Source: Bacilli bacterium
GTDB lineage: Bacteria; Bacillota_I; Bacilli_A; RFN20; CAG-826
Assembly: GCA_017619815.1 (NCBI GenBank)
Contig: JAFZRR010000017.1
Span: 1-64,000, forward strand
Length of the DNA: 64,000 nucleotides
Direction: 5' to 3'
The translations under genes and the position numbers were made by a program. Below the pieces are notes generated by a model. The model was not told where the DNA came from. It saw only the letters and a program-made list of their open reading frames with translations, and ran no database searches. Position 1 is the stretch's first letter; the number at the start of each line of letters is the position of its first letter. Shown here one piece after another: positions 1 through 26,893 of this stretch.

Positions 1-464
1 ACAAATTGAAATCCATTCTTTTGAATAACTTTGTTACTTCCAATATTTGCGACTTCTGCGCGGATAGTTATTTTCTTAAATCCAAGTGTGAATAAATAAT
101 CTTTGAAAGCTGAAAAGACTTCAGTCATGTATCCTTTGTTCCAACATTTATTTGCTATGCAATATCCAACTTCTGGAACACCGTCAATGTATTTTACAAC
201 ATCGATGCCACCGACAAGTTCACCACTATCTTTTAAGGTAATACCAAATCTAATGGTTGTAGGGTCTTTATATTGATTTACCCACATAGTAACAATTTGT
301 CTTGTGACTTCGATATTCTCATGTACTGGCCAAGTTAAATATTTCACTACTTCAGGATCACTTGCCCAGTTAGAAAACATTTCATACTCGTCTCCAAGTT
401 TGAATTCTCTAAGTAATAATCTTTCAGTTTCTATCGTACTTTTCTTGTTCATACTTGATTTCAT
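1..464 (-). CDS. GNAT-family N-acetyltransferase (RimJ/RimL-like); C-terminus cut by the window edge
   Basis: Minus-strand ORF running off the left edge, so absent from the ORF track. Own translation from ATG ending at 464: MKSSMNKKSTIETERLLLREFKLGDEYEMFSNWASDPEVVKYLTWPVHENIEV...IRAEVANIGSNKVIQKNGFQF. This is a RimJ-like GNAT N-terminus with a ...N.S.KV.EK.GF motif. Confidence 0.6.
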   Translation of the reverse strand, partial: MKSSMNKKSTIETERLLLREFKLGDEYEMFSNWASDPEVVKYLTWPVHENIEVTRQIVTMWVNQYKDPTTIRFGITLKDSGELVGGIDVVKYIDGVPEVGYCIANKCWNKGYMTEVFSAFKDYLFTLGFKKITIRAEVANIGSNKVIQKNGFQF

Positions 465-7296: not shown

Positions 7297-8010
7297 TTAG
7301 ATAAGAAACAAAATGGAGAAGGCGATAACAAATTGAGCGATGTAATAAAACACGGAATATGTCGCCATATAGGCTTTGCTTCTTTGCCCTTCTTTGAAAT
7401 AAGCTCCTGTCAGCATCATGTCGCTTGCGCAGAAGCATATCGCTGCAGGAAGGAACATCACCAATGTGGTTAACGCAAACTTATATAAAATAGCCATGCA
7501 TAATGCAGAAGACACCATTGTGGTTAAACAATACAAATAGAATAGTCCAAAGATTAACATTCCTTTGCCAAAGTTGATTCCAACCTTTTTCGCCACGAGC
7601 ATATAAATACTGATAATGACGACTGGTAATACGAATGGGAGAATAATGAATAAAGTATTTCCTGGAATCCAAAAGTCGATTAATAAGCCCAAAATATAAC
7701 AAATATGGCCGATTGCAAAAGCAAACATACCAAGGAGTATCCAAATCTTCTTTGTCTTTGTGGTTATATATTTAAAACCAAGAAATAAATCACCGAGCAT
7801 TCCAAAGAATAAACCGAGCACTGTGAATAGTTTGAAAATAAAATGTCCTTCTTTATTTAAACAGAAGGCCACAATTCCTAACGCCACAAAGAATAATGAA
7901 GCGATAGTTTTAAAGATGATTGTTTTTAAAGAATAGTTAGTGACTTTGCTCACGATAAAAACAATCGACATAATCGTCCCAAGGACTAAAAGAATTATTG
8001 ATGGAATCAT
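7297..8010 (-). CDS. polytopic integral membrane protein (about 7-8 TM)
   Basis: 237 aa, hydrophobic throughout. Possibly YhhN-like, but not verifiable from sequence alone. Confidence 0.55.
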   Translation of the reverse strand: MIPSIILLVLGTIMSIVFIVSKVTNYSLKTIIFKTIASLFFVALGIVAFCLNKEGHFIFKLFTVLGLFFGMLGDLFLGFKYITTKTKKIWILLGMFAFAIGHICYILGLLIDFWIPGNTLFIILPFVLPVVIISIYMLVAKKVGINFGKGMLIFGLFYLYCLTTMVSSALCMAILYKFALTTLVMFLPAAICFCASDMMLTGAYFKEGQRSKAYMATYSVFYYIAQFVIAFSILFLI

Positions 8011-8083
8011 ACGTTTTTATTATAGCTCACATAAGCTAGTTTGATTATCAAATAATCTAAACAAATATCAAAATTTAATAAAC

Positions 8084-8115
8084 AAAAACGGGGTTCCAAG
8101 TGGTTCCCCGTTTTG
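8084..8115 (-). terminator. intrinsic terminator at the end of the minus-strand SipW/TasA operon
   Basis: AAAACGGGG-loop-CCCCGTTTT hairpin with A/T runs on both sides. Confidence 0.6.
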
Positions 8116-8233: not shown

Positions 8234-9784
8234 TTACCAAACTAATGATGGTGTGTTTTCACCAGTAAGAAGTTCGCTATCATTAACGTAGATACCAGCA
8301 CCATTTGGTGAACCAGTAGAGTGCATCTTTAATGTAACAAAATCAAATGTTGTTGGATCATCGGCAACGATGTCGATAAATGTTGATAAGGCATTTTGAC
8401 GTGCGACTTTGCAGTTTGTTAATTTTGCAGTTGTGTTGTTAATGACTTCGAGCAATAAACCCTTACCATCGCCTTCTTCGTGGTCGCCGTTTTCTAAGAA
8501 TTTACAATTTGTGAATTCAGCTGGTGAGTAACAACGGATGTAATTAAGTTTTGAATCTACATCACCATATTCGGAAGCTGAGAATGTAACGTTTGTAAAT
8601 TTAGCTGTGCCGGAGTTGTTGAATGTTGTCCAGCCACGAATAACAGAATCTTCAACGATTAAGTCTTTGCAATGTGTATTCAAAGTATACCATTCTGTCA
8701 TAATCATAGAATTCTTCACGATGATATTGTGTTCGTCATCTAAATTAATATTGCCACCATATAAGTTGGCCCAGTAACCGTCAACAACAACACCATCGAA
8801 AACGATGTTTTGAGCAATTCTTGGTTGACCATAGTTATAAACTAAGTATGCGCTTGTGTTACCATTAGCATCAGCGCCATGGAATTCACAATCTTTGAGC
8901 GTGAAGCCGTGTGTAAATGGAACTAATACTGCATAAGTACTTGCATCGGAAGCTTCAACTTCGATGCCTTCAATAACAACATTATCTCCACCTAATTTGA
9001 AGATAAATGGGTTAACTGCTGTAGATCTACCTTCAGCAATGATTTTGTGACCATTACCAATGATGTGTGCACCTGCTGGTAAAACGATAGAATCAGTTGC
9101 AGGAATTTCAATATCGCCTAATAATTCAACAGATGTATCTGCTGCGATAGCATCGATTAATTGACTGTATGACATAACCGCTGCTTCAACTTCCATATTG
9201 GCTTGGACGCCATAGAGTTTGAATTCAACGTTGGATTTCGCGCCTTGATATTCATTACCGGCTTCGACTGGTAATTCAACTGAGACGTGATAGGCTGGCA
9301 TTTCTTCACCAGGACCAATATTTGTCATTGCGGCTGGAGCTGCTTGGCCTTGGGCATCTTTCATAGAAATGACTAATCCGCTTGATAATTTTGCGGTCGC
9401 GTAATCTAAATCACCTTGGCTGGCTTCTTTACCACTTTGTTCATTTTGGAATGAATAGAGTAATTGATATTTTGCTAAGACGTTGGATTGATTGTTAAGT
9501 GTTAAATCGAATTCAACTCTGTCGCCTGGAGTCATTTTTTCAAGAGCAACAGTGGCTTCTTGTAATGTGGCTAAACCACCGTTTTGGAATTGGCCGTTTT
9601 GTTGTTCAACGTCCAATGAATATAATTTGAGGTTTGATGCTTCTAATGACATTCTGACAACACCAGCTTCAATAGACATATTAGCTTTGTTTTCAGATGT
9701 AAAGTAAGCGATTGTGCCACCAACAGCGCCGGCGGCCATTAATGCTGCTGTAACAGCGGCAGTAATAACATATCTTTTTTTCAT
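8234..9784 (-). CDS. secreted TasA/camelysin-family N-domain fused to a right-handed beta-helix domain
   Basis: Start trimmed to MKKRYVITAAVTAALMAAGAVGGTIAYFTSE, a SipW-cognate-type signal. The block MTPGDRVEFDLTLNN matches the TasA NLKPGDK...ENNG block. The C-terminal half carries repetitive N/G/V-rich beta-helix-like turns (NVVIEGIEVEA..., IIVKNSMI..., LIVEDSVIRG...). Confidence 0.65.
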   Translation of the reverse strand: MKKRYVITAAVTAALMAAGAVGGTIAYFTSENKANMSIEAGVVRMSLEASNLKLYSLDVEQQNGQFQNGGLATLQEATVALEKMTPGDRVEFDLTLNNQSNVLAKYQLLYSFQNEQSGKEASQGDLDYATAKLSSGLVISMKDAQGQAAPAAMTNIGPGEEMPAYHVSVELPVEAGNEYQGAKSNVEFKLYGVQANMEVEAAVMSYSQLIDAIAADTSVELLGDIEIPATDSIVLPAGAHIIGNGHKIIAEGRSTAVNPFIFKLGGDNVVIEGIEVEASDASTYAVLVPFTHGFTLKDCEFHGADANGNTSAYLVYNYGQPRIAQNIVFDGVVVDGYWANLYGGNINLDDEHNIIVKNSMIMTEWYTLNTHCKDLIVEDSVIRGWTTFNNSGTAKFTNVTFSASEYGDVDSKLNYIRCYSPAEFTNCKFLENGDHEEGDGKGLLLEVINNTTAKLTNCKVARQNALSTFIDIVADDPTTFDFVTLKMHSTGSPNGAGIYVNDSELLTGENTPSLVW

Positions 9785-9803
9785 AAGATTTTTTTCCTTT
9801 CTT

Positions 9804-11354
9804 TTAGAATGTGTAGTCAACAACAATGGATTTCTTGCCATTAAATGTTGCATCTGTAATTGAGTATTTAGGAGCTGCTTCTCCATATAAATCAGCAGCT
9901 AATAAAGCTCTTCTTTCACCATATAAATAACCAGTAGTATCGGTTAATTGTGTGGTGTTGCTATATTTTGTAGCGTAAACAAGATAATAACCAAGTTCTT
10001 CTGGGTCATCGCCATATTGGACTTCTGCTGAGTATGTTCCAACATAAGCATTTGTCGAACTGTTATATCCTCTAATGAATGTGCTGTAATCTAATGCCTT
10101 TTCGATAGATTCATAGATTTCTGGTTGAGCGGCATTTGGTCTTGTTAATTTATATGTTGTATTAACGGAATTGATGACTGCGCCAGTATCTTGAATCATA
10201 TAGAAAGCTTCCCATTGATCGCCTTGTTGAATGGCTTCAACAACACAATTTTCGAAATTGACATGCACACCTGTTGCGCCAGAATTAATAACAACAACAC
10301 CAAAGGCATTTGAAGAATCACTATGTGGATTTACACCTCTGATTGTAGAATTTTTAACATTGACAACTGTATTTGGTGACCAAATATTGAATGCACCCCA
10401 AGCTTGGACGCTTGAATTTTCAATGTTAATTTCAAGGTTTTCGTTTCCACTTCCAACATTTATGCCATAGTAATCTGATATCTCTACGTCAACATCATTT
10501 AAATTGACAGTACAATTTGTTGTATCAAACATGCCAATAGCATTGGTGTATGTGCCAGTGGAAGGACCTTCAATATCAACACCAGTAATATTAAGAGTGG
10601 CATTTTCAACTTCGTCTAAAATAATTGGTCTTCTCGCACCTTCAGGAGCGGTAATTTTAACATCACCATCACCATAGAGATTAATTTCGGAATTGCTTGG
10701 AACTTCAAGCACTTCGTTTAAGTTGATATCCTCTGCAATATATAAATTCGCTTCTCCACCTTCTGCAGGAATTGCATCGAGTGCAGCTTCAAGACCAGAA
10801 GCATCAGAAACTGTTGGCATATTGAATTGAACTGCTTCAACCACTATTTTAACAACTGCGGATTTATTCAAATAATCAACAGTAGTAGTAAATGGTATTT
10901 CAATTGAGGCATCCAGATTAATAACTGTTGCGTTTTCAGATGGTTCAACTGTTGTCCAGTTAGAAGCGCCTCCGGAAACGTTAGCTTCTAGGGCTGGTGC
11001 TAAATCACCACTTTTGCTAAATTTGACACGGTATTTGATCTTAATATTGTTTTCAAGATTAATACCAACTTTAAATGTGGCTTTATCGCCCGGAGTCATT
11101 CTATCGAGTGTGATAACTTGCGTAGATTGATTTAGTGAAGCGGTTCCACCATTTTCAAATTTACCATCTTCTTGAGCAACATCTAGTGAATATGTTTTTA
11201 ATTCGCTTACAACCGATGTGAGAGCAAAATTACCAGAAGTAATATTAACTTCGGTTTTTGCTTCCTTGGAAAAATAGGCGATTGTTCCGCCGACAGCACC
11301 GGCTGCTAAAAATGCGGCCATGATTGCAGCGGATATGATTGCTCTTTTTCTCAT
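9804..11354 (-). CDS. secreted TasA/camelysin-family N-domain fused to a beta-helix domain (paralog of 8234-9784)
   Basis: MRKRAIISAAIMAAFLAAGAVGGTIAYFSKE signal and the MTPGDKATFKVGINLENN block. The C-terminal region has beta-helix-like repeats (TVNLNDVDVEISD..., NLEINIENSSVQAWG...). Confidence 0.65.
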   Translation of the reverse strand: MRKRAIISAAIMAAFLAAGAVGGTIAYFSKEAKTEVNITSGNFALTSVVSELKTYSLDVAQEDGKFENGGTASLNQSTQVITLDRMTPGDKATFKVGINLENNIKIKYRVKFSKSGDLAPALEANVSGGASNWTTVEPSENATVINLDASIEIPFTTTVDYLNKSAVVKIVVEAVQFNMPTVSDASGLEAALDAIPAEGGEANLYIAEDINLNEVLEVPSNSEINLYGDGDVKITAPEGARRPIILDEVENATLNITGVDIEGPSTGTYTNAIGMFDTTNCTVNLNDVDVEISDYYGINVGSGNENLEINIENSSVQAWGAFNIWSPNTVVNVKNSTIRGVNPHSDSSNAFGVVVINSGATGVHVNFENCVVEAIQQGDQWEAFYMIQDTGAVINSVNTTYKLTRPNAAQPEIYESIEKALDYSTFIRGYNSSTNAYVGTYSAEVQYGDDPEELGYYLVYATKYSNTTQLTDTTGYLYGERRALLAADLYGEAAPKYSITDATFNGKKSIVVDYTF

Positions 11355-11374
11355 ATACTTTTCCTTTCTATAAA

Positions 11375-11998
11375 TTATTCGGTAACTTGTGTGGCAACTA
11401 ATTGAATACCCATGTTAATAGTTAAACCTTGTGCATCGTTACCAGCATTGTCTCCGATTTCTACTTTCATCGTAAATTCTTGTTCCCCATCTTTGATGAG
11501 TTTTGGAAGTTGAAAATCGGAACGGTTTTGGTCGAGTGTATAGCTAACTGCGGTAGCACCAGTAGCTTCAAATGTCACTGTTGTAGCAGCGTAAATTGAA
11601 GAATCTGATGGGGCATTATTATCTTGATCATCTTTAACGGATAATTCAGGAATACTTACCACAGTGGAAAATGCCGTAGCACCAGTATTGGATAACTTGA
11701 ATGTTAATTCATAGGAAGCGCCTGGAACTGCTCCATCTACGTCTAAGGCATCTGCACCATCGTTTGATAAATCAACAACTGTGTTATCGACTGTTTCAGA
11801 AATGGTACCTTGCGCATCTAAAGAATTACTGACTAATTTGGTTCTTGCGAATGAGAAATTCAAATTACCCACTTTAATGTGCGCAGTGGTTGAAACCTGA
11901 CGTGAGAACAAAGCAAATGTTCCGGCGACAACTCCACCTAATGCTAGTGTGGCAATAATCGCGGATGCTATTAACGCTCTTCCGGTTTTAGTGTTCAT
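11375..11998 (-). CDS. TasA/CalY (camelysin)-like secreted fibre protein
   Basis: 207 aa. The signal ALGGVVAGTFALFSRQ resembles the Bacillus TasA/CalY GGGTFA(F)FSD motif. Confidence 0.6.
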   Translation of the reverse strand: MNTKTGRALIASAIIATLALGGVVAGTFALFSRQVSTTAHIKVGNLNFSFARTKLVSNSLDAQGTISETVDNTVVDLSNDGADALDVDGAVPGASYELTFKLSNTGATAFSTVVSIPELSVKDDQDNNAPSDSSIYAATTVTFEATGATAVSYTLDQNRSDFQLPKLIKDGEQEFTMKVEIGDNAGNDAQGLTINMGIQLVATQVTE

Positions 11999-12011
11999 AC
12001 GTTCTCCTTTC

Positions 12012-12242
12012 TTACTTTTTCTTAGCTTCTAAAACTTCGGTTAAGGAACCGGCGAAAAGGACGTCGACATTGTTTTCATTATCATCTTTCAATGTGAATG
12101 ATACTGAAGAAACTTTATAGAGCTCTCTATTTGGATTATGGAAATTTCTTTTTCTTACGACCGCTTCATGAGTTCCCACACCAATAAGTGCGAACGCAAA
12201 AAGCACGACTAATGCAATTAGTAGAATGAAATACCACGGCAT
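12012..12242 (-). CDS. small single-TM protein
   Basis: 76 aa, MPWYFILLIALVVLFAFALIGVG, tightly packed inside the operon. Confidence 0.4.
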   Translation of the reverse strand: MPWYFILLIALVVLFAFALIGVGTHEAVVRKRNFHNPNRELYKVSSVSFTLKDDNENNVDVLFAGSLTEVLEAKKK

Positions 12243-12245
12243 AGA

Positions 12246-13094
12246 TTACTCCTCCTTTTCATCGATTTCTTTATCGACGTTAGTTGCTTCTTCTTGCTCC
12301 TTATTTTGAAGCGCGGCAAGCTGCGCTTTAAGATTTTCAATCTCGGCTTGGTTAGAATCAATTTGCGCTTGAGTTTCACCAGCTTTGATCAATTTCTTTT
12401 CCTTCTTATCTTTATAGACATAGAAGATGATTTTACCTATTTCAAAGAAACATAAGAGCGTGCATGGAATGACGACGAGGAACAAAATTCCATTGCGGGA
12501 TTTTAAGAACGAAACTACTTCTCCCATTGGATGGTTCATCCAAACGACTTTGCCAATCACATAGGAGAATGATTGCTCCGCAGTTATTGGATTGGTGTAG
12601 ACAGTTTGGACTCCACCTGATGCTTGTTCAGCGTCACCCATAAGGGTTAATTTATAACCCTCTAAAGCAGGTGTTTTTTCAATAAGTCTGTGGGTATAGA
12701 CATATTGACCTGTTTTTCCATTGATTGATGTGTAATAAACAAATGTCACCACATCACCGACCTTAAGGTCTTCGTAAAACTTTTCCGCATTCTTTTCTGT
12801 AACTTCTTTAATTCGAATCAAAGAATTAACAGGAAGAGTTTTAATGGAATAGGATTTATAGGTCTCCGGATCAATATGGTTATTCTCTGACATAGAACCA
12901 GTTTCTACGGTTCTAAGTTGGTAACCATTGATGGAGTTGCCATTTTTGTTATTCGATGTCGTATTACGAAAGATAATGGCGACGACCGCGAAGGCCGCAA
13001 AAGAAATGAATAAAGCATCAAGGACAATACTAATAATTTTTCTGACCTTGGATTGTTTATTTTCTTCCTTTTTGACTTCTTGCGCTTCTTCCAT
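12246..13094 (-). CDS. sipW: SipW-type (ER/archaeal-type) signal peptidase I with a C-terminal TM anchor
   Basis: Catalytic-box equivalents TGSMS (SGSMEP-like), YTHRLI (THRI/V) and MGDAEQ (GDN-like). N- and C-terminal TM segments present. Confidence 0.65.
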   Translation of the reverse strand: MEEAQEVKKEENKQSKVRKIISIVLDALFISFAAFAVVAIIFRNTTSNNKNGNSINGYQLRTVETGSMSENNHIDPETYKSYSIKTLPVNSLIRIKEVTEKNAEKFYEDLKVGDVVTFVYYTSINGKTGQYVYTHRLIEKTPALEGYKLTLMGDAEQASGGVQTVYTNPITAEQSFSYVIGKVVWMNHPMGEVVSFLKSRNGILFLVVIPCTLLCFFEIGKIIFYVYKDKKEKKLIKAGETQAQIDSNQAEIENLKAQLAALQNKEQEEATNVDKEIDEKEE

Positions 13095-13105
13095 AAAATT
13101 CCTAA

Positions 13106-13597
13106 CTACATCGTTTTAATGAAAGACATGTGGAAAGTGAACTGCATATCGAGTTCTGGTTCCACGACTTCATTTGATAAATAGAAAGTTAAGGTGAAAT
13201 TCTCACCATCTTCTTTAATGAATGTCTTATCTTTTAAAGCGTTTTCTTTATCAAGATTCTTGATTTCATAAATGTTTGTTCCGTCTTCTTTGACAAATAA
13301 TAATTTGTCATCTTGTCTAGCGGACACACTGACATACTTCGCGGAATATTCATCTACATCTGTAAACCATAAAGAGGTATTCGCATTTGAATACCAATCA
13401 AAATCAACTTCGATATTGAAGTCTTTTTGCTGTCCAGGAAGCATGTCTAAATAGATGTCTTGTTCGACAACTTCGCCATCTTCTGTGGTCATGGTTTGTT
13501 TTTGAGAATTATAGTAATACCCCACAACAACACCAGCACCACCTGTTAATAGAAGACCTGAACAGATGAATAAACCGATGATTGTATGTAGTTTCAT
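13106..13597 (-). CDS. small secreted protein immediately upstream of sipW (TapA-position gene)
   Basis: 163 aa with signal peptide MKLHTIIGLFICSGLLLTGGAGVVVG. Start overlaps the upstream stop as TAATG. Confidence 0.5.
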   Translation of the reverse strand: MKLHTIIGLFICSGLLLTGGAGVVVGYYYNSQKQTMTTEDGEVVEQDIYLDMLPGQQKDFNIEVDFDWYSNANTSLWFTDVDEYSAKYVSVSARQDDKLLFVKEDGTNIYEIKNLDKENALKDKTFIKEDGENFTLTFYLSNEVVEPELDMQFTFHMSFIKTM

Positions 13598-15123
13598 TAT
13601 TTACTCTTTTCTATACCTGCTGCTGCCATCGCGTCATCGATGAGTTTCATCGCGCGCTTCATAGCTAATTCAGATTTCACTCTGAAACATAATGGGAGAT
13701 CTTCAAATGCTTTCTTTGAAGAATCATCTTCCACTGGAATCTTGCTATCTGCGTAAGCTTTTGGATCCAAACGATAATGAATCTTTAAAGTCTTACCTGC
13801 GATTTGTAATTTCACGTATGTCTTACGTTTATAAGATAAGGAATCCGCAGTTGTGCTGACACGTGAAACCAAGGCATATTTTTCAATACCATAATCCTTG
13901 ATTTCCTTGTAAGCGTGACGTGTTTCATTTCTCACTCTTAAAAGTTTTTCGTAGAAAGTACGTGTTTTAATATTTGGGAATCCATCGCCGCCCTCTTCGG
14001 CTTCTGGTTCTTCTTTAACTGGTTCAGGTTTTGGTTCTGGTTTCTTTTCGATAACCACTTTCTTTGGCTCTGGTTTTGGTTTTTCAACCTTTTCTTTTGG
14101 TTCTTCTTCCTCTTGAAGTTTTGCTAATTCTTCTGGGGATAATTTTTGAAGACCCGCTTTGAGCATTGTGTCACCCAATAATTGTTTTGCACGTTTTAAA
14201 CCAAGATTTGACTTAACACGGAACACCAAAGGAATATCAGCGAATAATTTCTTCGCTGAATCATCTTCCACTGGAATTGGGGAGTCTTTATAATCCGCTG
14301 GTTCAAGACGGTAATGGAGTTTTAATGTACGTCCACCGATACCGATCTTGAGGTAATTGATTTTCTTATATGAGTAAGCATCACCATTAGAGGAAACACG
14401 AGATTTCAAACCATAAGATAATGCTTCTTGTTTGAGTTCTTCATAGAAAGAAACTTGTTCTTCAGAAATGAGGTGTAATTTTTCTTCGAATGTTCTTCTA
14501 TTAATATTGATTTCTTTGCCACCTTCTTCAGCTGGTTCTTCACTAGCTTCTTCCACTGGTTCTGGTTGAGGAGCGGATTCTTCTTTAACTGGTTCAGGTT
14601 CTTTTTCTGGTTCTTTTTCCACGACTGGCTCTGGCTCTGGTTGTGGTTCAGATTCTGGTAAAACAATCTTTTCTTCTTTTTGTGGTTGTTCCTTAATTGG
14701 ATCCACAGCAAGAACAAGGACTTGTTTTCCGTTTTTCACCATAAATGTGAATTTTGCAGATAAAAGATATAAACGATAAAATTCTTCAAAATCGTCTCTA
14801 TTTTTGAAGTATGGATCTTTTTTATCTTTCTTATATTGTTCTTCGTTAGCTTTGATGTAGTTATCAAATAGTTCTTTATTAGAAGCGACATATTCGCGTT
14901 CTCTTTTTAGAACTACATCTAAGACAATTTTTCCTAATTCACCACTTTGACTTTTGTTAAAGAGATTCTCGAAGTCATCATCGAAGAGTTCGAATAATGC
15001 ATGCGCGACAATCTTTGTGGCTTTTTCCGCGAGTGGAGATGCAGGTCTACTGACATCCACCAAAATAAGCGAAAAGTCATTTTCACGTTGGAAAACAACT
15101 GGCATAACATTTTTAAGTTCCAT
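13597..15123 (-). CDS. cytoplasmic protein with two tandem ~125-aa repeat domains separated by Pro/Glu/Lys-rich linkers
   Basis: 508 aa. Repeat 1 is NINRRTFEEKLHLISEE...LKLHYRLEPADYKDSPIPVEDDSAKKLFADIPLVFRVKSNLGLKRAKQLL. Repeat 2 is NIKTRTFYEKLLRV...LKIHYRLDPKAYADSKIPVEDDSSKKAFEDLPLCFRVKSELAMKRAMKLI. Linkers are PEPEPVVEKEPEKEPEP stretches. No signal peptide. Confidence 0.6.
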   Translation of the reverse strand: MELKNVMPVVFQRENDFSLILVDVSRPASPLAEKATKIVAHALFELFDDDFENLFNKSQSGELGKIVLDVVLKREREYVASNKELFDNYIKANEEQYKKDKKDPYFKNRDDFEEFYRLYLLSAKFTFMVKNGKQVLVLAVDPIKEQPQKEEKIVLPESEPQPEPEPVVEKEPEKEPEPVKEESAPQPEPVEEASEEPAEEGGKEININRRTFEEKLHLISEEQVSFYEELKQEALSYGLKSRVSSNGDAYSYKKINYLKIGIGGRTLKLHYRLEPADYKDSPIPVEDDSAKKLFADIPLVFRVKSNLGLKRAKQLLGDTMLKAGLQKLSPEELAKLQEEEEPKEKVEKPKPEPKKVVIEKKPEPKPEPVKEEPEAEEGGDGFPNIKTRTFYEKLLRVRNETRHAYKEIKDYGIEKYALVSRVSTTADSLSYKRKTYVKLQIAGKTLKIHYRLDPKAYADSKIPVEDDSSKKAFEDLPLCFRVKSELAMKRAMKLIDDAMAAAGIEKSK

Positions 15124-15348
15124 AAAAGCACCCCTTTTTTACTAAACTCAAATCTACGTATATATGTATGTGTTTATATTTTATATGAGAAAAGTTTTAA
15201 TGACAAACGGTGGAATTATCGAACTTGAAAAAAACAATTTGGGTCCTTTTCAATTTTTTCCTCACTACATCAGTATTTTTTAACAATTTTTGCCAAAAAA
15301 CATTATTTTTCAAATTTTGATAAAAAGTTGCGATATGGCCTTAAAAAA

Positions 15349-15382
15349 GTAAAAGAAAAGCGATCGCTCACACGATCGCGTT
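15349..15382 (-). terminator. minus-strand intrinsic terminator closing the GC-rich non-coding island
   Basis: On the minus strand the sequence reads CGCGATCG-tgtgag-CGATCGC followed by TTTTCTTTT. Confidence 0.5.
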
Positions 15383-15849
15383 AACCGGTTGTTTTGTATC
15401 AGGGACGAGCCCTGACACATAACACAAGTTGAGTTCTTTCTGTCTGGTGGTGCTTCTTGTTGACGATACGTTTTAAATTGATTAGCGTATCGGTGGCCAG
15501 ATTCCTCTAGTTATTAGCTTCGAGGCCTTTTTCCTTTTCGTCGTGTCCGGTACTGGATTTATCCCGTCAAACTCTAACGCGGGGACCAGTGATGCAAGCA
15601 TCAGTGAGGAACGTACCGATCGTTACCTTAATTCAGATAACGCTTTGCTAGTGCAACCATTAACCACTTTTTTTGATTCCATGGAGTTCCTACATCAATT
15701 TGGAGGAGCTGGTTGGCTTATCTAGTCTTGAACTTATTAATCCGTTTCTTCGTGGAGGTATCTCTTTGGAAGTTCTCCACTATTGTCACACGTTTGTTGA
15801 ATTATGTGACTTAGGCTTGCACTGCTTTGATTAGAAGCAGTATTTTGTA

Positions 15850-15920
15850 CCTCTTCGATCGTGTCCGGCGGTGGAATTACGCTGTTAAGTTCTAACTCAG
15901 CGACCACTGTAGCAGGGAGG
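15850..15920. repeat. 71-nt direct repeat copy 1 inside the GC-rich island
   Basis: CCTCTTCGATCGTGTCCGGCGGTGGAATTACGCTGTTAAGTTCTAACTCAGCGACCACTGTAGCAGGGAGG. A degenerate third copy starts near 15527 (CTTTTCGTCGTGTCCGG...). Confidence 0.8.
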
Positions 15921-16147
15921 TAAACCGTTAATCAACCCGAAGATTGATTAGCCGCTTGCGATCATGAACCAGAAGATTTAATCCTGGAACCTTACTATCA
16001 ACGTCGTGTAATGGTTGATCGTCGATTGTGCGGCTGAACTTCATTGCCCCTTTGTTAAGCATGCATTGAGAGGCTTAACTTATTTCACGTTGAATGTTAA
16101 CTTAGCGTGAACGGCAGTGTTATAAGGTATTAATCTCATAACCTTTG

Positions 16148-16219
16148 TCCTCTTCGACTGTGTCGGGCGGTGGGATTACGCTGTTAAGTTCTAACTCAGC
16201 GACCACTGTAGCAGGGAGG
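16148..16219. repeat. 71-nt direct repeat copy 2 (about 298 nt downstream of copy 1; roughly 4-5 mismatches)
   Basis: CCTCTTCGACTGTGTCGGGCGGTGGGATTACGCTGTTAAGTTCTAACTCAGCGACCACTGTAGCAGGGAGG. Confidence 0.8.
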
Positions 16220-16611
16220 ATCGACCTCGATTATTACCGAAGTAACAATCTACTAGTGCAATCATTAATCTGGAACTTTTGAGTTCTAGAACCGTCGTGT
16301 TAACTTCGTTTCCTACGTTGATTGACTTACCTAGATTTGGGTTAGTGAGTAGCTATCGCTACTCATTCCCATCAATTTGGTTTCCCAAGTTGATTGGTAA
16401 TAGTATCTTCTTTTTTATAAATTTGGTCAAGCACTTTTTTTAAAATTTTTTTAACTTTTTTATTTTTCTCGATGGCATCGTATCTTTTTTTGCAAAAAAA
16501 TTTTTAAAAATATTTTGTTTTTTATTTTTTTATTATTTTTTCCCGCTAGTTTTTGGTTTCACGTATAAAAATTATTATTAATTGAACGCATGTGCGCGTA
16601 TATATAGAAAC

Positions 16612-21709: not shown

Positions 21710-21721
21710 AATAACAGAACA

Positions 21722-21826
21722 AAAGGCACACTTAGAGAAATCTAAGGTCGCAAAGCTATAGGGCCCAGAGGGCAGCCAGTTGCTTCTAAGTTTATGCTTA
21801 GAGGTTTTTTATTTTTAGAACCTCAA
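21722..21826 (+). promoter_or_regulatory. c-di-GMP-I (GEMM)-like riboswitch candidate with an intrinsic terminator expression platform
   Basis: AGGCACAC-CTTAGA-GAAA-TCTAAG-GTCGCAAAGC-TATAGGGCC...CAGCCAGTTGC. This resembles the GEMM-I pattern GGCAAACC, a GNRA hairpin, GACGCAAAGC and AGCCRGYURCC. It is followed by the hairpin CTTCTAAG-tttatg-CTTAGAGG and TTTTTTATTTTT. Confidence 0.45.
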
Positions 21827-21851: not shown

Positions 21852-22436
21852 ATGACACTCAAAAACAAAATCGCTGCTATCACAGCAGCCTCAATGGTAG
21901 CATTTGTCGGAATCGGTTTTGCTGCCTGGACATTCAACAACAGCATTGCACAAACAGCACCAGAAAGCGCTTATGCAACATCCGCAATTGAAGCAAACAA
22001 CGTTGCGCTCAGCGGAAACACAGTGGTCTATTTAGTTTTAGATCAATCCAAACCATACTGGTCAACAGCAGTCAACAACGGTTCAAAACCAGTTGAATTA
22101 GCAAATGGTAAAATCACAGTCACACCATCTTACAGTTTGCAAAATCAAAATGATGGCGCGTCTTGGACTTACACATTAACAAGTGCTATTACAGTTGATG
22201 CCGCTATTGCAACATACGTTGATGTTACAGGATTCGACACAGTTGCTAAGACAGGTACAGTTACAGCAGGAGGCGGTGCAAACCAAATCGCAGCGCAAGA
22301 TTATGACTTACCAGCTCTCGCTTACACAGCAAGCAAACCAGCAAACTATACTGATTATCAAACAATGTTAACAGCTATCGGTACCGCTCACATCACATTC
22401 ACATTCAACTGCACATTCGCAGAAGTCGCCGCATAA
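21852..22436 (+). CDS. small TasA/camelysin-like secreted protein with a SipW-cognate-type signal
   Basis: 194 aa. Signal VAFVGIGFAAWTFNN resembles the TasA GGGTWAAFND signal. SD GAAGGAG upstream. Confidence 0.55.
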   Translation: MTLKNKIAAITAASMVAFVGIGFAAWTFNNSIAQTAPESAYATSAIEANNVALSGNTVVYLVLDQSKPYWSTAVNNGSKPVELANGKITVTPSYSLQNQNDGASWTYTLTSAITVDAAIATYVDVTGFDTVAKTGTVTAGGGANQIAAQDYDLPALAYTASKPANYTDYQTMLTAIGTAHITFTFNCTFAEVAA

Positions 22437-22453
22437 CATAATAGGAGCATTAC

Positions 22454-23242
22454 ATGACATCAATTACGATTATCACTATAGTCGTAGTTGTACTCCTTTT
22501 AGGTATCGTCGGTGGATTAAGTTGGTTAGCTTATTATTCTTGTTTAAAAGCATACAAGATAGAAGTTGGCCAAGGTCTTCATGACGAACAAATTACAAAA
22601 GAATTTAATTCAAAATTACAAAAGAAAAATAAGTGGAGTCTACTAGGCACAATAGGTTCTTGGATTGCCTTAGCTGCTTTGTTATCTTTATTTGTCACAG
22701 GTATTGTATATAAGGCAAGCGGGCAAATGTTTTCAGCAAGCAACAATGTTGCTCTTGTTATCAAAACAGGATCTATGTCAGACTTCTACAACGAAGAAGT
22801 AGCGGAAGCAAATAATAATGATAGAAGTCTTCAATTTGATGTTGGCGATATCTGCTTCTTCAATAAAGTATCAAAAGATAGCGAATTAACTATCGGTGAT
22901 GTTTATGGGTATAAATACAAGAACATGATTATCACTCATAGATTAGTTTCCATAAATGGAGACTATTACCAATTTAGAGGCGATAACAATAGTATTTATG
23001 ACACATACATTACTCGTGAGAGTATCATCTACCACTACACCGGAAACAAGGCAAAAGGCATTGGATCCTTTGTTTTGTACGCTCAATCCTATTTCGGAAT
23101 TATGTCTCTAGTAGGTGTTATTGGGATTATGGTTTTATCGGAAGTCATTAATTCCAAGATTGAAACAACGAATAAAACTAGAGCAAAGGAATTAGGTTTT
23201 GATGTTGAAGCCAAGCCAAAAACTAAGGAGAAGAAGAAATGA
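22454..23242 (+). CDS. sipW: SipW-type signal peptidase I (second copy)
   Basis: IKTGSMSDF, ITHRLVS and FRGDNN catalytic boxes. N- and C-terminal TM segments. Confidence 0.65.
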   Translation: MTSITIITIVVVVLLLGIVGGLSWLAYYSCLKAYKIEVGQGLHDEQITKEFNSKLQKKNKWSLLGTIGSWIALAALLSLFVTGIVYKASGQMFSASNNVALVIKTGSMSDFYNEEVAEANNNDRSLQFDVGDICFFNKVSKDSELTIGDVYGYKYKNMIITHRLVSINGDYYQFRGDNNSIYDTYITRESIIYHYTGNKAKGIGSFVLYAQSYFGIMSLVGVIGIMVLSEVINSKIETTNKTRAKELGFDVEAKPKTKEKKK

Positions 23243-24213
23243 GGAAAAGAACTTTAATTCTTATGCCGATTATTGGTTTACTCGCTTCTGCGATGTTTTT
23301 GGGCACGGGTTATGCCGCTTGGACGATGAATGATAGCTCAGTTGATGATACTATCCGTGTTGATATTCAAGATTGGGACTTTGGTGAAATTTCTGATTCA
23401 GCGCATATCGCAAATGTTAGTCAAACATCAAATTTAACTGCTTCGCAAGAAACCGCACTACTCTCTGATTATGCAACTAGTATTGAGGCAATCAGACTTA
23501 CCAATACCGCTGGAACATCAGGTGTTGATCATAGTGTTAATGTCACTTTAGATAAAACCTATACATTAGGTAACATAGCAACTTGGAAAGTTGAATTTGA
23601 TTATTACCACGCTGAAAAGAGATCTCAAGCTGGTAAGGGCTATCCAAAGGTTCAATTACTTTATAATAATTCAGGCAAAGGAAATACCTATGGCGGAGGC
23701 AACACCATTTCTCCAACATCAGTTTATTTATCCACTGATAGTGCTGATGGTAAATGGTGGCATCTAGAATACTTCATCACCGCGTTATGTCCAACAATGT
23801 CAGACCACGGTGATACAGTTCTAAGCCCAAGCCAATTAATTAACGGTGTTAAAATTGTTGATAGTAATATTTATGATTACAGTGGAAACACCGCATTTAT
23901 CATTATTGATAATTTAAAACTCACCAACACTTCATCACAAAGACTAGGTTTATTCAACGCTGGAACATCATTCAAAGTTGGTAAATACTATTGGATGAAA
24001 ATTGCTTGGAGTGGAGAATTACAATATGTGAATATCACATTTATTGATACTTCAGGCAATCCAACTGACGAATACGCAGATTACACACCATCAGATAAGA
24101 GCCCATTCTATCTATATGGTAAAAAGGCAGGAACGATTATTGCTACTGCTACATTGATAGTTGGTGGAGGTCAGCCACTGACAATCTCCAACACTCTGAC
24201 GGTTACTAATTAG
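23239..24213 (+). CDS. secreted protein with SipW-cognate-type signal; C-terminal domain paralogous to 2851-4140
   Basis: Signal LGTGYAAWTMND. Blocks shared with 2851-4140 (see that feature). Overlaps the sipW stop by 4 nt. Confidence 0.6.
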   Translation: MRKRTLILMPIIGLLASAMFLGTGYAAWTMNDSSVDDTIRVDIQDWDFGEISDSAHIANVSQTSNLTASQETALLSDYATSIEAIRLTNTAGTSGVDHSVNVTLDKTYTLGNIATWKVEFDYYHAEKRSQAGKGYPKVQLLYNNSGKGNTYGGGNTISPTSVYLSTDSADGKWWHLEYFITALCPTMSDHGDTVLSPSQLINGVKIVDSNIYDYSGNTAFIIIDNLKLTNTSSQRLGLFNAGTSFKVGKYYWMKIAWSGELQYVNITFIDTSGNPTDEYADYTPSDKSPFYLYGKKAGTIIATATLIVGGGQPLTISNTLTVTN

Positions 24214-24275
24214 CACGATAAAATTAAAAGGAATCTTCTATAAGAAGGTTCTTTTTTTATATAATTAGTTTAGTT

Positions 24276-25274
24276 ATGATCGAAGTTAAATCTCTTACAA
24301 AAGTATTCAAAAAACCTATTCGCGGAAAAGGTGTTTTAGGCATGATTAGAACTTTGTTCTCTCGTAAGTATAAAGAAATACGAGCGGTCGATGATGTCTC
24401 TTTTGATATTAAAGAGGGAGAAATCGTCGGCTATATTGGTTCTAATGGTGCAGGTAAATCCACCACTATCAAAATGATGTGCGGCATATTAACTCCAACA
24501 TCTGGACAAGTATTAATAGACGGCAAAGAGCCATACAAGAAACGCCGCATTGTCGCCAAGGAAATAGGTGTTGTCTTTGGACAAAAAACACAACTTTGGT
24601 GGGATATTCCTTTAATTGAATCATTCAAAGTTTTGAAAGAAATTTATCAAGTTAGTGATGAAGACTATAAAACAAGAATGGAATTCCTTTCTACTGTTTT
24701 AGGTATCGATGAGTTTTTAAGTCAACCAGTAAGGACTCTCTCTTTGGGCCAAAGAATGAGAGCGGATTTAGCAGCTTCCATGCTCCATAATCCAAAGATC
24801 CTATTTTTAGATGAACCAACAATTGGTATGGATGTTCTTGTTAAAGAAAAGATCCGTTTAGCTATTCACGCATTAAACGCTAAATATCACACCACTGTTG
24901 TTTTAACTACTCATGATATGGCGGATATCGAAGATCTTTGTTCCCGCATTATCATGATTGAAAAGGGCAAAATCATTTATGATGGTCCATTAAAAGCAAT
25001 CAAACATCGTTTTGGAAATATTAAAACTTTAACAATAACAGTGCCGGCAAATATCGATCCACTTGAAGTAGCACCGTACTCAAAAGATGTCGATATGAGT
25101 AGTAAGGATGACAAAGTTATGCTTAGATTTGACGCTGATAAAGTCAAACTCGAAGATGTCGTTCAATATGCATTCTCTAGTTACCATGCGATTGATATGA
25201 AAATTACTGACATTTCTATTGAAGATGTCGTAAAGCAAATTCTTGTGCAACAAGAGGAAGCAAAACATGCTTAA
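24276..25274 (+). CDS. ABC transporter ATP-binding protein (ABC-2 type)
   Basis: Walker A GSNGAGKST, signature LSLGQRMR and Walker B ILFLDEPT. Confidence 0.85.
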   Translation: MIEVKSLTKVFKKPIRGKGVLGMIRTLFSRKYKEIRAVDDVSFDIKEGEIVGYIGSNGAGKSTTIKMMCGILTPTSGQVLIDGKEPYKKRRIVAKEIGVVFGQKTQLWWDIPLIESFKVLKEIYQVSDEDYKTRMEFLSTVLGIDEFLSQPVRTLSLGQRMRADLAASMLHNPKILFLDEPTIGMDVLVKEKIRLAIHALNAKYHTTVVLTTHDMADIEDLCSRIIMIEKGKIIYDGPLKAIKHRFGNIKTLTITVPANIDPLEVAPYSKDVDMSSKDDKVMLRFDADKVKLEDVVQYAFSSYHAIDMKITDISIEDVVKQILVQQEEAKHA

Positions 25275-26100
25275 AAAATATAAGCCATTCCTCCGTGCAT
25301 CTGCAATGGATGTTATGGCATATAAATTCAATATCTTAGTTTGGGTTATTGTCACTCTTTTTGAAGTGGCTTGTTTAGTCTTTCTTTGGTTTGCTGTTTA
25401 TCAAAGCAGTGAAGGCGGTATTGATGCTTCAATCAATGGTTTCACTTATAAAGAAATGATTGCCTATGTTGTTTTAACAACAATATTTGGTTTTGTTACT
25501 TTTAACAACGACACTCTTTGGATTATTAATAATGACATCCGAAAAGGAACTATCGGTAATTATTTAATTAAACCTATTTCTTATAGAGGTAAATTCGTAG
25601 CTTCAAACATTGGCGCTTTATTAATTATGACATTAATATTTGGCATACCGCTTTACTCAATAGGTCTAGGTGTATTAATTGGGATTGGTTTTTTACCTAT
25701 TGTTTCTGTGTGGGAATTTATTGCTCATATAGGATTATTCTTAGTCGCTGGTGTCCTTGCATGTTTAATAAATGACACAATTGCATACATATTTGGAATT
25801 CTTTGTTTCTACACAACATCTGCCTGGGGACTTAATTCTTTAAAGACCACTATTATTGCATTCTTGTCTGGTACCTTACTCCCATTAGCATTCTTCCCAC
25901 CAATATTTAGAGATATTGTTGGCTACATGCCATTTGCGGGATTAAGCCAAAATCCAGTTTTAATATTGATGATGAAATATGATTATTTTGAATCAGCGAA
26001 AGTGATTCTTATTGCTTTAGCGTGGTTAGTTATTTTGGAACTTTTTTCAAAATTACTTTTCTGTCACGCAATCAAGAAAGTAACAGTGCAGGGAGGATAA
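25267..26100 (+). CDS. ABC-2 family transporter permease
   Basis: Polytopic membrane protein. Start trimmed to MLKKYKPFL just after the ATPase stop, with an SD-like GAGGAAG upstream. Confidence 0.65.
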   Translation: MLKKYKPFLRASAMDVMAYKFNILVWVIVTLFEVACLVFLWFAVYQSSEGGIDASINGFTYKEMIAYVVLTTIFGFVTFNNDTLWIINNDIRKGTIGNYLIKPISYRGKFVASNIGALLIMTLIFGIPLYSIGLGVLIGIGFLPIVSVWEFIAHIGLFLVAGVLACLINDTIAYIFGILCFYTTSAWGLNSLKTTIIAFLSGTLLPLAFFPPIFRDIVGYMPFAGLSQNPVLILMMKYDYFESAKVILIALAWLVILELFSKLLFCHAIKKVTVQGG

Positions 26101-26101
26101 T

Positions 26102-26893
26102 ATGAGATACATAAAATTATATTTTACCTGCATTAAAAGAAGCATCTTATCGAGATTAGATTACAAGCATGATGCGATCATTTCGATTCTCTCATTCTTG
26201 TTTTCAAATGCTTGTTCTCTCTGTGCTTTGTATTTCATCTTGCAAGCCATTCCAACACTAAAGGGATATTCAATCGCAGAAGTTGGATTCTTCTATGGTT
26301 TTTCCATGCTTCCAATCGCTATAGATCATTTATTCAGCGATGAATTCTGGCTTGTCGCTTATCGTAGAGTACAACTTGGTGATATGGATATGCACTTCCT
26401 AAGACCAGTACCTGTGATATTCCAAATGTTTGCACAAACATTCCAACCAGATGGTTTTGGAGAAGTAATTGTTGGTATCGCAATGATTATTGTATGTGGC
26501 ATTAATTTGCATGTTACTGTTTCCTTTGGAGCAATATTTGTTCTTGTTATTGGCGCAGTGTTTGGAGCGATTATTATCACTTCATTTAAGATTATCTTCT
26601 CAGCGTTAGCATTCATCTTTAAACGCAGCGGACCACTACTTCAAATCATCTATAACTTTACAAGTTACGCTAAATATCCAATCGCCATTTATCCAAAAGT
26701 TATTCGTATTATCTTGATATTTGTTTTACCATTCGGCCTATTTGTTTCATTGCCTGTCGATACATTGCTTTATGGAACATATAATCCATATTTATTGAGC
26801 CTTTGCATCATTGGTGCGGCAATCGTGTTATTTGCGCTTGCCGTCCTTATTTGGACCAGATGCGAAAGACATTATGAATCAACTGGTTCTTAA
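26102..26893 (+). CDS. ABC-2 family transporter permease (second subunit)
   Basis: Polytopic membrane protein adjacent to the first permease. Confidence 0.65.
   Translation: MRYIKLYFTCIKRSILSRLDYKHDAIISILSFLFSNACSLCALYFILQAIPTLKGYSIAEVGFFYGFSMLPIAIDHLFSDEFWLVAYRRVQLGDMDMHFLRPVPVIFQMFAQTFQPDGFGEVIVGIAMIIVCGINLHVTVSFGAIFVLVIGAVFGAIIITSFKIIFSALAFIFKRSGPLLQIIYNFTSYAKYPIAIYPKVIRIILIFVLPFGLFVSLPVDTLLYGTYNPYLLSLCIIGAAIVLFALAVLIWTRCERHYESTGS

Follow-up and report, generated by a model that had tools for sequence, protein, structure and literature searches.

We describe a row of seven closely packed minus-strand genes at positions 8234–15123 of a 64,000-nt stretch of DNA from a Bacilli bacterium (positions 1–64,000 of contig JAFZRR010000017.1, assembly GCA_017619815.1), here called the window. 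The genes are numbered g1 to g7 in the direction of transcription. Together they probably encode a TasA-superfamily surface fibre, SipW-dependent and fitted with modular adhesive heads, in which g5 would form the shaft and g6 and g7 would be the adhesin-bearing subunits. The source contig belongs to a ruminant-gut metagenome-assembled genome (MAG; locus tags J5511_01300 and J5511_01305), and all seven products are 'hypothetical' or unannotated in the public records examined. The genes and the two signals that bound them are as follows.

g1, 13597–15123, minus strand, 508 amino acids (aa): N-terminal ~145-aa conserved domain, Pro/Glu-rich linkers and two ~120-aa modules (~205–330 and ~385–508)
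g2, 13106–13597, minus strand, 163 aa: N-terminal hydrophobic helix (…LLLTGGAGVVVGYYYNSQ; transmembrane (TM)-like window 3–21), then an acidic beta-rich domain
g3, 12246–13094, minus strand, 282 aa: putative divergent SipW/endoplasmic reticulum (ER)-type (S26B) signal peptidase I, from hidden Markov model (HMM) matches, motifs and intermediate sequences
g4, 12012–12242, minus strand, 76 aa: predicted single-pass membrane protein with a TM helix at 1–19, an RKR cluster and a conserved LYKVSS…VDVLFAG segment
g5, 11375–11998, minus strand, 207 aa: stand-alone TasA-superfamily protein by PF12389 and hhalign, candidate major (shaft) subunit
g6, 9804–11354, minus strand, 516 aa: predicted signal at 1–26 (ending …GAVGGTIA, with YFS after the cut), TasA-like domain ~40–180, linker helix 185–193, right-handed beta-helix ~200–415 and cap subdomain 417–516
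g7, 8234–9784, minus strand, 516 aa: predicted signal ending …GAVGGTIA (YFT after the cut), TasA-like domain ~45–195 and beta-helix ~218–507, in the same layout as g6
Promoter-like site, 15178–15206, minus strand: TTGTCA-17-TAAAAT, 10 of 12 matches (a consensus match only)
Terminator, 8080–8114, minus strand: strong intrinsic terminator after g7, read from the sequence as a stem-loop and T-run (AAAACGGGGAACCACTTGGAACCCCGTTTTTGTTT)

Profile comparisons place g5 in the TasA superfamily, together with the first ~190 aa of g6 and g7 (below, the N-domain). The Pfam model PF12389 recognises g5 (30.7 bits) and g7 (28.0 bits) above its gathering score of 22.5; g6 alone is sub-threshold at 15.7 bits and matches the N-domain HMM at E = 4e-73. 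Aligned with hhalign, g5 matches the N-domain profile of the large proteins over its full length (96.8%, E = 2e-10). When a 28-sequence N-domain profile was searched against the PDB, TasA (5of1, 8aur) and AbpX (9sj2) were the only matches with E < 1e-3, all at ~6e-5, and AbpX was the top sequence match (5.4e-5). A further AbpX entry (9rhp) followed at 2e-3 and the next match at E = 0.34; a PDB search with the single g5 sequence returned only noise. The last-strand motif of the N-domain, NEYQG…VQAN, resembles NKYQG…ATQWN of TasA. A preliminary description of the region, made from the sequence alone, had named the 207-aa product a TasA/CalY-like protein and had assigned TasA-like N-domains to the two large proteins. 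Both assignments held up, through PF12389 for g5 and g7 and through the N-domain profile and hhalign for g6.

The signal regions of the three proteins are alike. The motifs quoted in the preliminary description, GGTIAYFS in g6, GGTIAYFT in g7 and the block RMTPGDK/KMTPGDR, are present, and G22, T24, A26, F28 and the P-G-D triplet are invariant across homologues. On TIGR04088, the model for the SipW-cognate signals that it had assigned to the two large proteins, g7 scores 19.5 bits (cutoff 19) and g6 falls just short (18.3 bits); g5 gives no match and carries a signal similar to those of g6 and g7 (…LGGVVAGTFALFS). In the AlphaFold2 (AF2) models of both g6 and g7, residues 27–38, past the predicted cut, are unstructured and have low predicted local distance difference test (pLDDT) values. 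In the alignment with the solved AbpX chain (9sj2_C), this post-cut segment (…GGTIA, then YFT…) falls on the N-terminus, from residue 3 on. Such a segment would fit the expectation for a free donor strand but does not prove one. None of g5, g6 and g7 contains an LPXTG motif or a C-terminal TM segment, and their retention on the cell would therefore need an anchor subunit.

Behind the N-domain, g6 and g7 carry heads that are modelled as right-handed parallel beta-helices with a pectin-lyase-like fold. Both AF2 models (pLDDT 86.9 and predicted template modelling score (pTM) 0.81 for g6; pLDDT 80.5 and pTM 0.80 for g7) run from a beta-sandwich through a short linker helix into a long parallel beta-helix, and the head of g7 is a different beta-helix from that of g6 (~30% identical). 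Foldseek matched g7 to GH87 and to the binding region of the Lactobacillus reuteri SRRP with probability 1.0. Structural matches include both enzymes (GH87, PL6, pectin methylesterases, pectate lyases, RbmB and phage depolymerases) and adhesins (SRRP, PfbA, pertactin, UpaB and Vag8). At the sequence level, the g7 family profile matches the endopolygalacturonase 1k5c (1.3e-5), GH110 (3e-4), TasA 8aur (3.8e-3) and the pectate lyase 5olp (9e-3). The GH28 motifs NTD, DD and GHG of 1k5c are unmatched in the g7 profile alignment. Head residues that are invariant among orthologues are mostly Asn, Gly and aromatic or aliphatic residues, with one or two Glu and one Arg; by sequence conservation, there is neither an invariant Asp nor an acidic cluster among them. 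The g7 orthologue P0038 carries a PF13229 Beta_helix domain, and the heads of sister paralogues match GLUG and PF20585, the 'pectate lyase-like adhesive domain'. Across loci the N-domain is better conserved than the heads, which are swapped from one locus to another. We favour heads that bind over heads that catalyse because conserved catalytic acids are missing, the GH28 motifs are unmatched and paralogues match PF20585 and GLUG; the heads would in this respect resemble beta-solenoid adhesins. The beta-helix C-terminal halves of the preliminary description thus reappear in both the AF2 models and the structural matches. That description had named three points on which it could fail, and the other two, a TasA-family HMM match and an ER-type signal peptidase HMM match (below), were likewise found.

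The putative peptidase of the row, g3, is by its sequence a divergent member of the SipW/ER-type class of signal peptidases and not a strict SipW orthologue. It matches NF046067, the equivalog model for Bacillus SipW, at E = 9e-9 (35.2 bits against a cutoff of 190; residues 21–237 against model positions 4–180 of 189), and TIGR02228 at E = 3e-4 (20.8 bits against a cutoff of 51.85). Strict orthology with SipW is set aside because the equivalog cutoff of NF046067 is missed. A Pfam scan gave no S24/S26 match for g3, and PDB searches with the single sequence (noise) and with the family profile found no solved relative. Three motifs are invariant in 14 g3 homologues: S67-M68 (in TGSM), T134-H135-R136 (THR) and G153-D154-A155 (GDA). 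We take these, as in SipW and Sec11, to be the catalytic boxes of S26B peptidases, with His instead of Lys beside Ser and Asp. TM-like windows at 17–35 and 199–217 lie on either side of the catalytic domain, and a charged C-terminal tail of ~60 aa has a heptad-like, coiled-coil-like pattern.

The wider family of g3 ties it more firmly to this class. A word-indexed protein search found 21 relatives, and the picture of a tiny isolated family that it gave was overturned by an HMM search of the fetched loci. The g3-family HMM there recovers peptidases of ~230–355 aa beside genes for TasA-like N-domains (TasA-N genes) in 16 loci of other gut MAGs, at E = 1e-36 to 1e-51, and these peptidases score 50–121 bits on NF046067. 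One of them, in locus L048, clears TIGR02228 (93.6 bits against the cutoff of 51.85). The g3 protein is 33% identical to this enzyme (E = 3e-29), and its three motifs are all in register with LTGSM, THRI and GDAND of the L048 sequence. A contig scan with the g3 alignment, for which the search patterns came from TM segments, gave no matches. These comparisons uphold the SipW-type peptidase of the preliminary description, through the NF046067 match, the invariant motifs and the L048 link, at scores below the curated cutoffs. A 40%-identical g3 paralogue, P0074 (L066, 10001–10849; also L067), stands alone beside an AAA_14/DUF4143 ATPase. No TasA-like gene occurs in the available 10 kb upstream of P0074 in L066, so a g3-type peptidase is not always tied to TasA-like substrates.

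The seven genes, as judged from sequence signals, form one transcription unit. From g1 to g7 the spacers measure −1, 11, 3, 13, 20 and 19 nt, and a Shine-Dalgarno-like AGGA/GGAG precedes every start. The preliminary description had counted eight genes, but the row holds seven open reading frames (ORFs), the total to which its own list also comes; it had further placed the genes 0–20 nt apart or overlapping, and the tight spacing stands, the sole overlap being that of 1 nt between g1 and g2. The promoter-like site lies ~55 nt upstream of the g1 ATG and downstream of a terminator (15379–15360) that ends the preceding non-coding unit. Past the g7 terminator, the next gene (YhhN, 7297–8010) comes with a separate promoter-like site, and relatives do not share its synteny with the operon. 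The last gene had been read as a ~550-aa protein, from an upstream ATG (start at 9886) that has no ribosome-binding site; the ATG at 9784 has one. The NCBI product is 516 aa long, and metagenome gene calls give 516 aa once and 539 aa twice. The g7 product is most likely 516 aa, with the 550-aa ORF an over-extension, and the 83-nt overlap between g6 and g7 disappears because the g7 start is corrected to 9784. The operon is flanked by YhhN and by a Peptidase_S41 lipoprotein gene. Genes for UvrB, SecA, DnaX, TypA and DinB are nearby, and the window is chromosomal; no further TasA-like or SipW-signal genes were found within its 64 kb.

The arrangement recurs elsewhere. Six metagenome loci (L065, L068 and L070–L073) keep the order g1-g2-g3-g4-g5, with identities to the window genes of 44–59% for g1, 62–81% for g2, 68–84% for g3, 66–77% for g4 and 78–89% for g5, which is the most conserved secreted product among them. 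Past this core come two to four large TasA-N genes, whose products match g6 and g7 over their first ~185–255 residues; the rest differs or matches only one of the two. Because the same order recurs in six independent, diverged loci (56–89% protein identity), the arrangement is not due to chance. The flanks differ from locus to locus, with toxin-antitoxin pairs, AbiEii and a STAND NTPase among them. The cassette therefore moves or is kept as a unit, and its surroundings are variable and island-like. PhdYeFM/PIN_3 pairs, an AbiEii gene and STAND/AAA ATPases were located beside the operon at L065 11569–12245 and at L068 1738–2405, 4882–5115 and 14688–18884.

A looser version of the architecture is more widely distributed. 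Scanned with the g6 family, species-representative genomes yielded 60 loci, many of them within the same MAGs, and a SipW-like gene is present in 16 of the 60. The usual layout of these 16 Clostridia-type loci is a g2-like gene (in some), the SipW-like gene, in some an unknown ORF of 180–270 aa, a short g5-like gene and then one to four TasA-N proteins of 430–1044 aa. Several of the large proteins carry Beta_helix (43 bits), Pectate_lyase_5 (31.8 bits), GLUG or DUF3737 domains. With this architecture in 16 loci of other gut Firmicutes, the design is not lineage-specific. The preliminary description had suggested a new system in this lineage with an undescribed architecture. The novelty is consistent with the open-access full-text literature, of which coverage was incomplete, where we found no description of TasA/beta-helix fusions or of this operon; the restriction to one lineage did not survive. 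Some MAGs hold many separate TasA-N loci (among L005–L064): CAVJMJ has ten, and CAVIFU and CAVJPU have six each. Several record titles of these loci name taxa that would be unlikely hosts for a Firmicutes-type system (Parasutterella, Bacteroidaceae, Slackia and Alistipes), which suggests mislabelled or chimeric bins; the organism names in these records play no part in our argument.

The three accessory genes are harder to place. The hydrophobic helix of g2 ends in GGAGVVVGYYY, and hhalign gives a weak match to the TasA-N profile (29.7%, E = 6e-4) that aligns the signal region and sets MLPGQQKDF of g2 against MTPGDKxxF. No Pfam or NCBIfam model, TapA models (TIGR04087-type) included, matches g2. 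It does occupy the TapA position, as the preliminary description had noted for its small secreted gene, but without TapA homology. Genes like g2 also lie upstream of the SipW-like gene in L012 and L026 and upstream of the short TasA-like gene in L061. By analogy with Tafi loci, g2 is the best candidate for a membrane anchor or a fibre-end subunit. In related loci g4 is always found between g3 and g5, and it has no family match in Pfam, NCBIfam or PHROGs. It is a possible peptidase partner or anchoring subunit, with TafG and signal-peptidase accessory proteins as the analogy (PMC12337348; bioRxiv 10.64898/2026.01.04.697558). The tail of g4 is probably cytoplasmic because the RKR cluster directly follows the TM helix (positive-inside rule). 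A role for its LYKVSS…FTL segment as an extracellular donor strand was rejected on account of this cluster and of hhalign comparisons in which g4 showed no relation to g2 or to the N-domain.

The g1 product, syntenic in all six related loci, has no predicted signal peptide or TM segment. Its module occurs in more than 2000 cluster representative proteins of 240 to ~2800 aa, often after Pro/Glu-rich linkers and at the C-terminus of multi-TM or signal-bearing proteins, with the consensus …F.EKL…Y.EIK.E.L.YGLKSRVS..GDTF…GKTLK..FALDP.DY.DSTIPVED.S.KK.YAD.PLLFKVKS.LS.RRAK.LI.D.M. Neither g1 nor its module found an interpretable relative in Pfam, NCBIfam, PHROGs or a PDB profile search; matches of g1 to TonB, PARP and PspA were set aside as Pro/Glu-rich low complexity. 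From these sequence comparisons, the module looks like an undescribed, widespread domain. In distant operons, the g1 orthologues (L068 5400–7730, L072 7179–9488 and L073 409–2739) are 769–776 aa long and hold four DUF1508 (YegP-like) domains (97 bits) between the N-terminal domain and the C-terminal module. The protein P0121, otherwise unrelated, also combines DUF1508 with the g1 module.

We propose the following mechanism. The g5, g6 and g7 products would take the Sec export route (the window also contains a gene for SecA, outside the operon), and their shared signal (…G-G-T-x-A before the cut, Y/L-F-S/T after it) would be cut by the dedicated S26B peptidase g3, perhaps assisted by g4. The cut would free an N-terminal strand, and donor-strand exchange of the kind known from TasA, BsaA, AbpA/AbpX and Tafi would place this strand in the jelly-roll of an adjacent subunit. 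The 207-aa g5 would build the fibre shaft. With the same polymerisation domain, g6 and g7 would join the fibre at its tip or along its length, each presenting a ~320-aa right-handed beta-helix as an adhesin, most likely one that binds glycans. One TM helix and a small beta domain would suit g2 as a membrane-proximal anchor or fibre-end subunit, and g1 would stay in the cytoplasm. The analysis itself supplies the structure of the operon, the assignments of families and folds, the conservation of catalytic motifs and of synteny, and the variability of the heads; from these we infer the cleavage by g3, the polymerisation, the division into shaft and heads, the adhesion and the roles of g2 and g4.

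Several observations weigh against a fibre with adhesive heads. The peptidase scores far under the curated cutoffs of both signal-peptidase models (NF046067 and TIGR02228), g6 falls 0.7 bit under the TIGR04088 cutoff, and g5 has no match to that model. In searches with the whole chains, which the larger beta-helix dominates, TasA is missing from the top 50–60 structural matches, so the fold of the N-domain is assigned from the sequence profiles and the all-beta prediction. By hhalign, g2 is weakly linked to TasA (30%), and the probably cytoplasmic tail of g4 weighs against a donor-strand role for that protein. Polymerisation is a prediction here, and TasA-family proteins also occur as monomers. 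This last point leads to the main structural rival, in which SipW processing would leave g5, g6 and g7 as monomers, the state in which camelysin/CalY was originally described, or as short oligomers, and the TasA-like domain would serve as a stalk or membrane-associating module. Soluble monomeric TasA and CalY exist, BsaB is found as dimers only (PMC11580942), and adhesins that act independently would likewise fit with several paralogues whose heads differ. We nevertheless consider this unlikely: no other secreted component is as well conserved as the head-less g5, which is present beside the fusions in every related locus, and this is hard to explain unless g5 is their common partner or shaft; the three proteins have no other anchoring device; and all TasA-superfamily members with a solved assembled structure polymerise by donor-strand complementation (PMC9674648, PMC9245690, PMC12337348 and the AbpX preprint).

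The main functional rival concerns the heads. Here g6 and g7 would be secreted to degrade polysaccharides, in the manner of pectinases, alginate lyases or glucanases, the TasA-like N-domain would serve only for SipW-dependent export or for tethering to a g5 scaffold, and a rumen bacterium would use the whole as an apparatus to break down plant fibre or matrix. The ruminant-gut metagenomes from which the sequences come would suit such an apparatus, and the enzymes listed above, from GH87 to the phage depolymerases, are among the best structural matches. The beta-helix fold is indeed common to many polysaccharide lyases and hydrolases, and the sequence-level polygalacturonase match of the g7 family profile (1.3e-5, with GH110 at 3e-4 and 5olp at 9e-3 behind it) speaks for catalysis. 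In view of the conservation pattern of the heads described above, we regard this reading as quite unlikely. The idea that unrelated genes came together by chance, or that the row is an artefact of annotation, could appeal to the lack of any recognisable link between g1 and secretion, but it is hardly credible for seven co-directional genes ≤20 nt apart, with one promoter-like site and one terminator, that keep their order in six diverged loci with different flanks. Adhesive fibres built on the TasA-like domain thus remain our preferred reading of the operon.

Two regulatory or non-coding features lie near the operon. Three cow-rumen-1 RNA motifs (RF02946) occur on the minus strand at 15533–15592, 15850–15910 and 16149–16209, scoring 73–86 bits against a gathering score of 53. 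Each belongs to one of three ~300-nt tandem units (15394–16310) within a 1.5-kb non-coding gap, with a promoter-like site (16430–16402) and the terminator at 15379–15360 of their own. The units share sequence beyond the 61-nt motif, so the RNA may extend past the Rfam model. The array is absent upstream of orthologous operons and is therefore probably an independent non-coding RNA gene, not an operon leader; a role for these RNAs as operon regulators was rejected for this reason and because a terminator and a separate promoter-like site stand between them and g1. On the plus strand, a cyclic di-GMP (c-di-GMP)-I riboswitch (21715–21787, 54.7 bits) precedes genes at 21852–26893, namely ORFs of 194, 262 and 324 aa without a family match and then an ABC-2 type transporter (ATPase and two permeases). 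The riboswitch may thus put a putative export system under c-di-GMP control, 6.5 kb from the putative fibre operon.

The components of the operon are known, from the TasA superfamily, the S26B peptidases and the pectin-lyase-like fold, and its logic is that of tapA-sipW-tasA, sipW-bsaABC and Tafi/ABP. Like Bacillus subtilis tapA-sipW-tasA and B. cereus sipW-tasA-calY, it sets a dedicated S26B peptidase beside TasA-family substrates with a signal of the GGT-x-A-x-F type. Also shared with the Bacillus systems are an accessory gene upstream of the peptidase and more than one TasA-like paralogue (there TasA and CalY). Unlike the Bacillus systems, it has a very divergent peptidase (35 bits) with a ~28-aa insertion between the Ser and His motifs and a coiled-coil-like tail, a g2 without TapA homology, a ~320-aa beta-helix on two of its three TasA-like proteins and the extra genes g1 and g4, in an uncultured gut MAG. 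The sipW-bsaA-bsaB-bsaC operon of Clostridium perfringens likewise combines SipW, two TasA-like proteins and a large binding-type (vWA) protein, and BsaA oligomers are membrane-anchored and have intermolecular isopeptide bonds (PMC11580942). The large vWA protein is, however, separate there, and the accessible part of that report mentions TasA-like homology for BsaA and BsaB only, whereas here the beta-helix heads are fused to the TasA-like module (PMC11580942).

More distant systems share parts of this design. The haloarchaeal Tat-fimbriae (Tafi) and the archaeal bundling pili AbpA/AbpB and AbpX follow the same locus logic: the main pilin is of the TasA superfamily, the tip protein has several domains, a TM helix and a beta domain make up the anchor, and a small accessory protein goes with the signal peptidase. 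At Tafi loci these parts are the major pilin, a two-domain tip protein, TM-plus-jelly-roll anchors (TafF) and the signal peptidase TafD with its accessory TafG (PMC12337348). Those systems are archaeal, Tafi is exported by the twin-arginine (Tat) route and their tip proteins are not beta-helix-pilin fusions, whereas here the signal is of the Sec/SipW type and there are several head-bearing subunits per operon. The beta-solenoid adhesins SRRP of L. reuteri, PfbA of Streptococcus pneumoniae and PF20585 differ in being LPXTG-anchored, with SRRP secreted via SecA2, and the window proteins have a TasA-type domain and no sortase signal. FimH and PapG of chaperone-usher pili also fuse a receptor-binding domain to a donor-strand-complemented pilin domain. 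They are unrelated and Gram-negative, need a chaperone and an usher, and place the adhesin N-terminally and the pilin domain C-terminally, the reverse of g6 and g7. What is new relative to the TasA-type systems is that beta-helix heads, both large and variable, are fused directly to the TasA module, in tandem behind a head-less paralogue; also new are the very divergent peptidase with its extra tail and the accessory genes g1, g2 and g4.

Known TasA-type fibres are biofilm scaffolds in Bacillus and Clostridium and bundling pili in archaea, with subunits of a single domain. We conjecture, tentatively, that the loci described here belong to a widespread and undescribed group of gut-Firmicutes pili, in which the TasA jelly-roll would act as a universal chaperone-free polymerisation handle, freed by a private S26B peptidase, and would carry interchangeable, tandem-encoded beta-helix (and other) adhesin heads. 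If this is true, such pili would be a third kind of Gram-positive adhesive fibre besides sortase pili and type IV pili, and the swapping of heads between strains would set host or substrate specificity. Fibres assembled as predicted could also provide a simple chaperone-free scaffold for domain display, and they could account for the attachment of wall-poor or uncultured bacteria of the gut and rumen to plant fibre, mucus or other cells.

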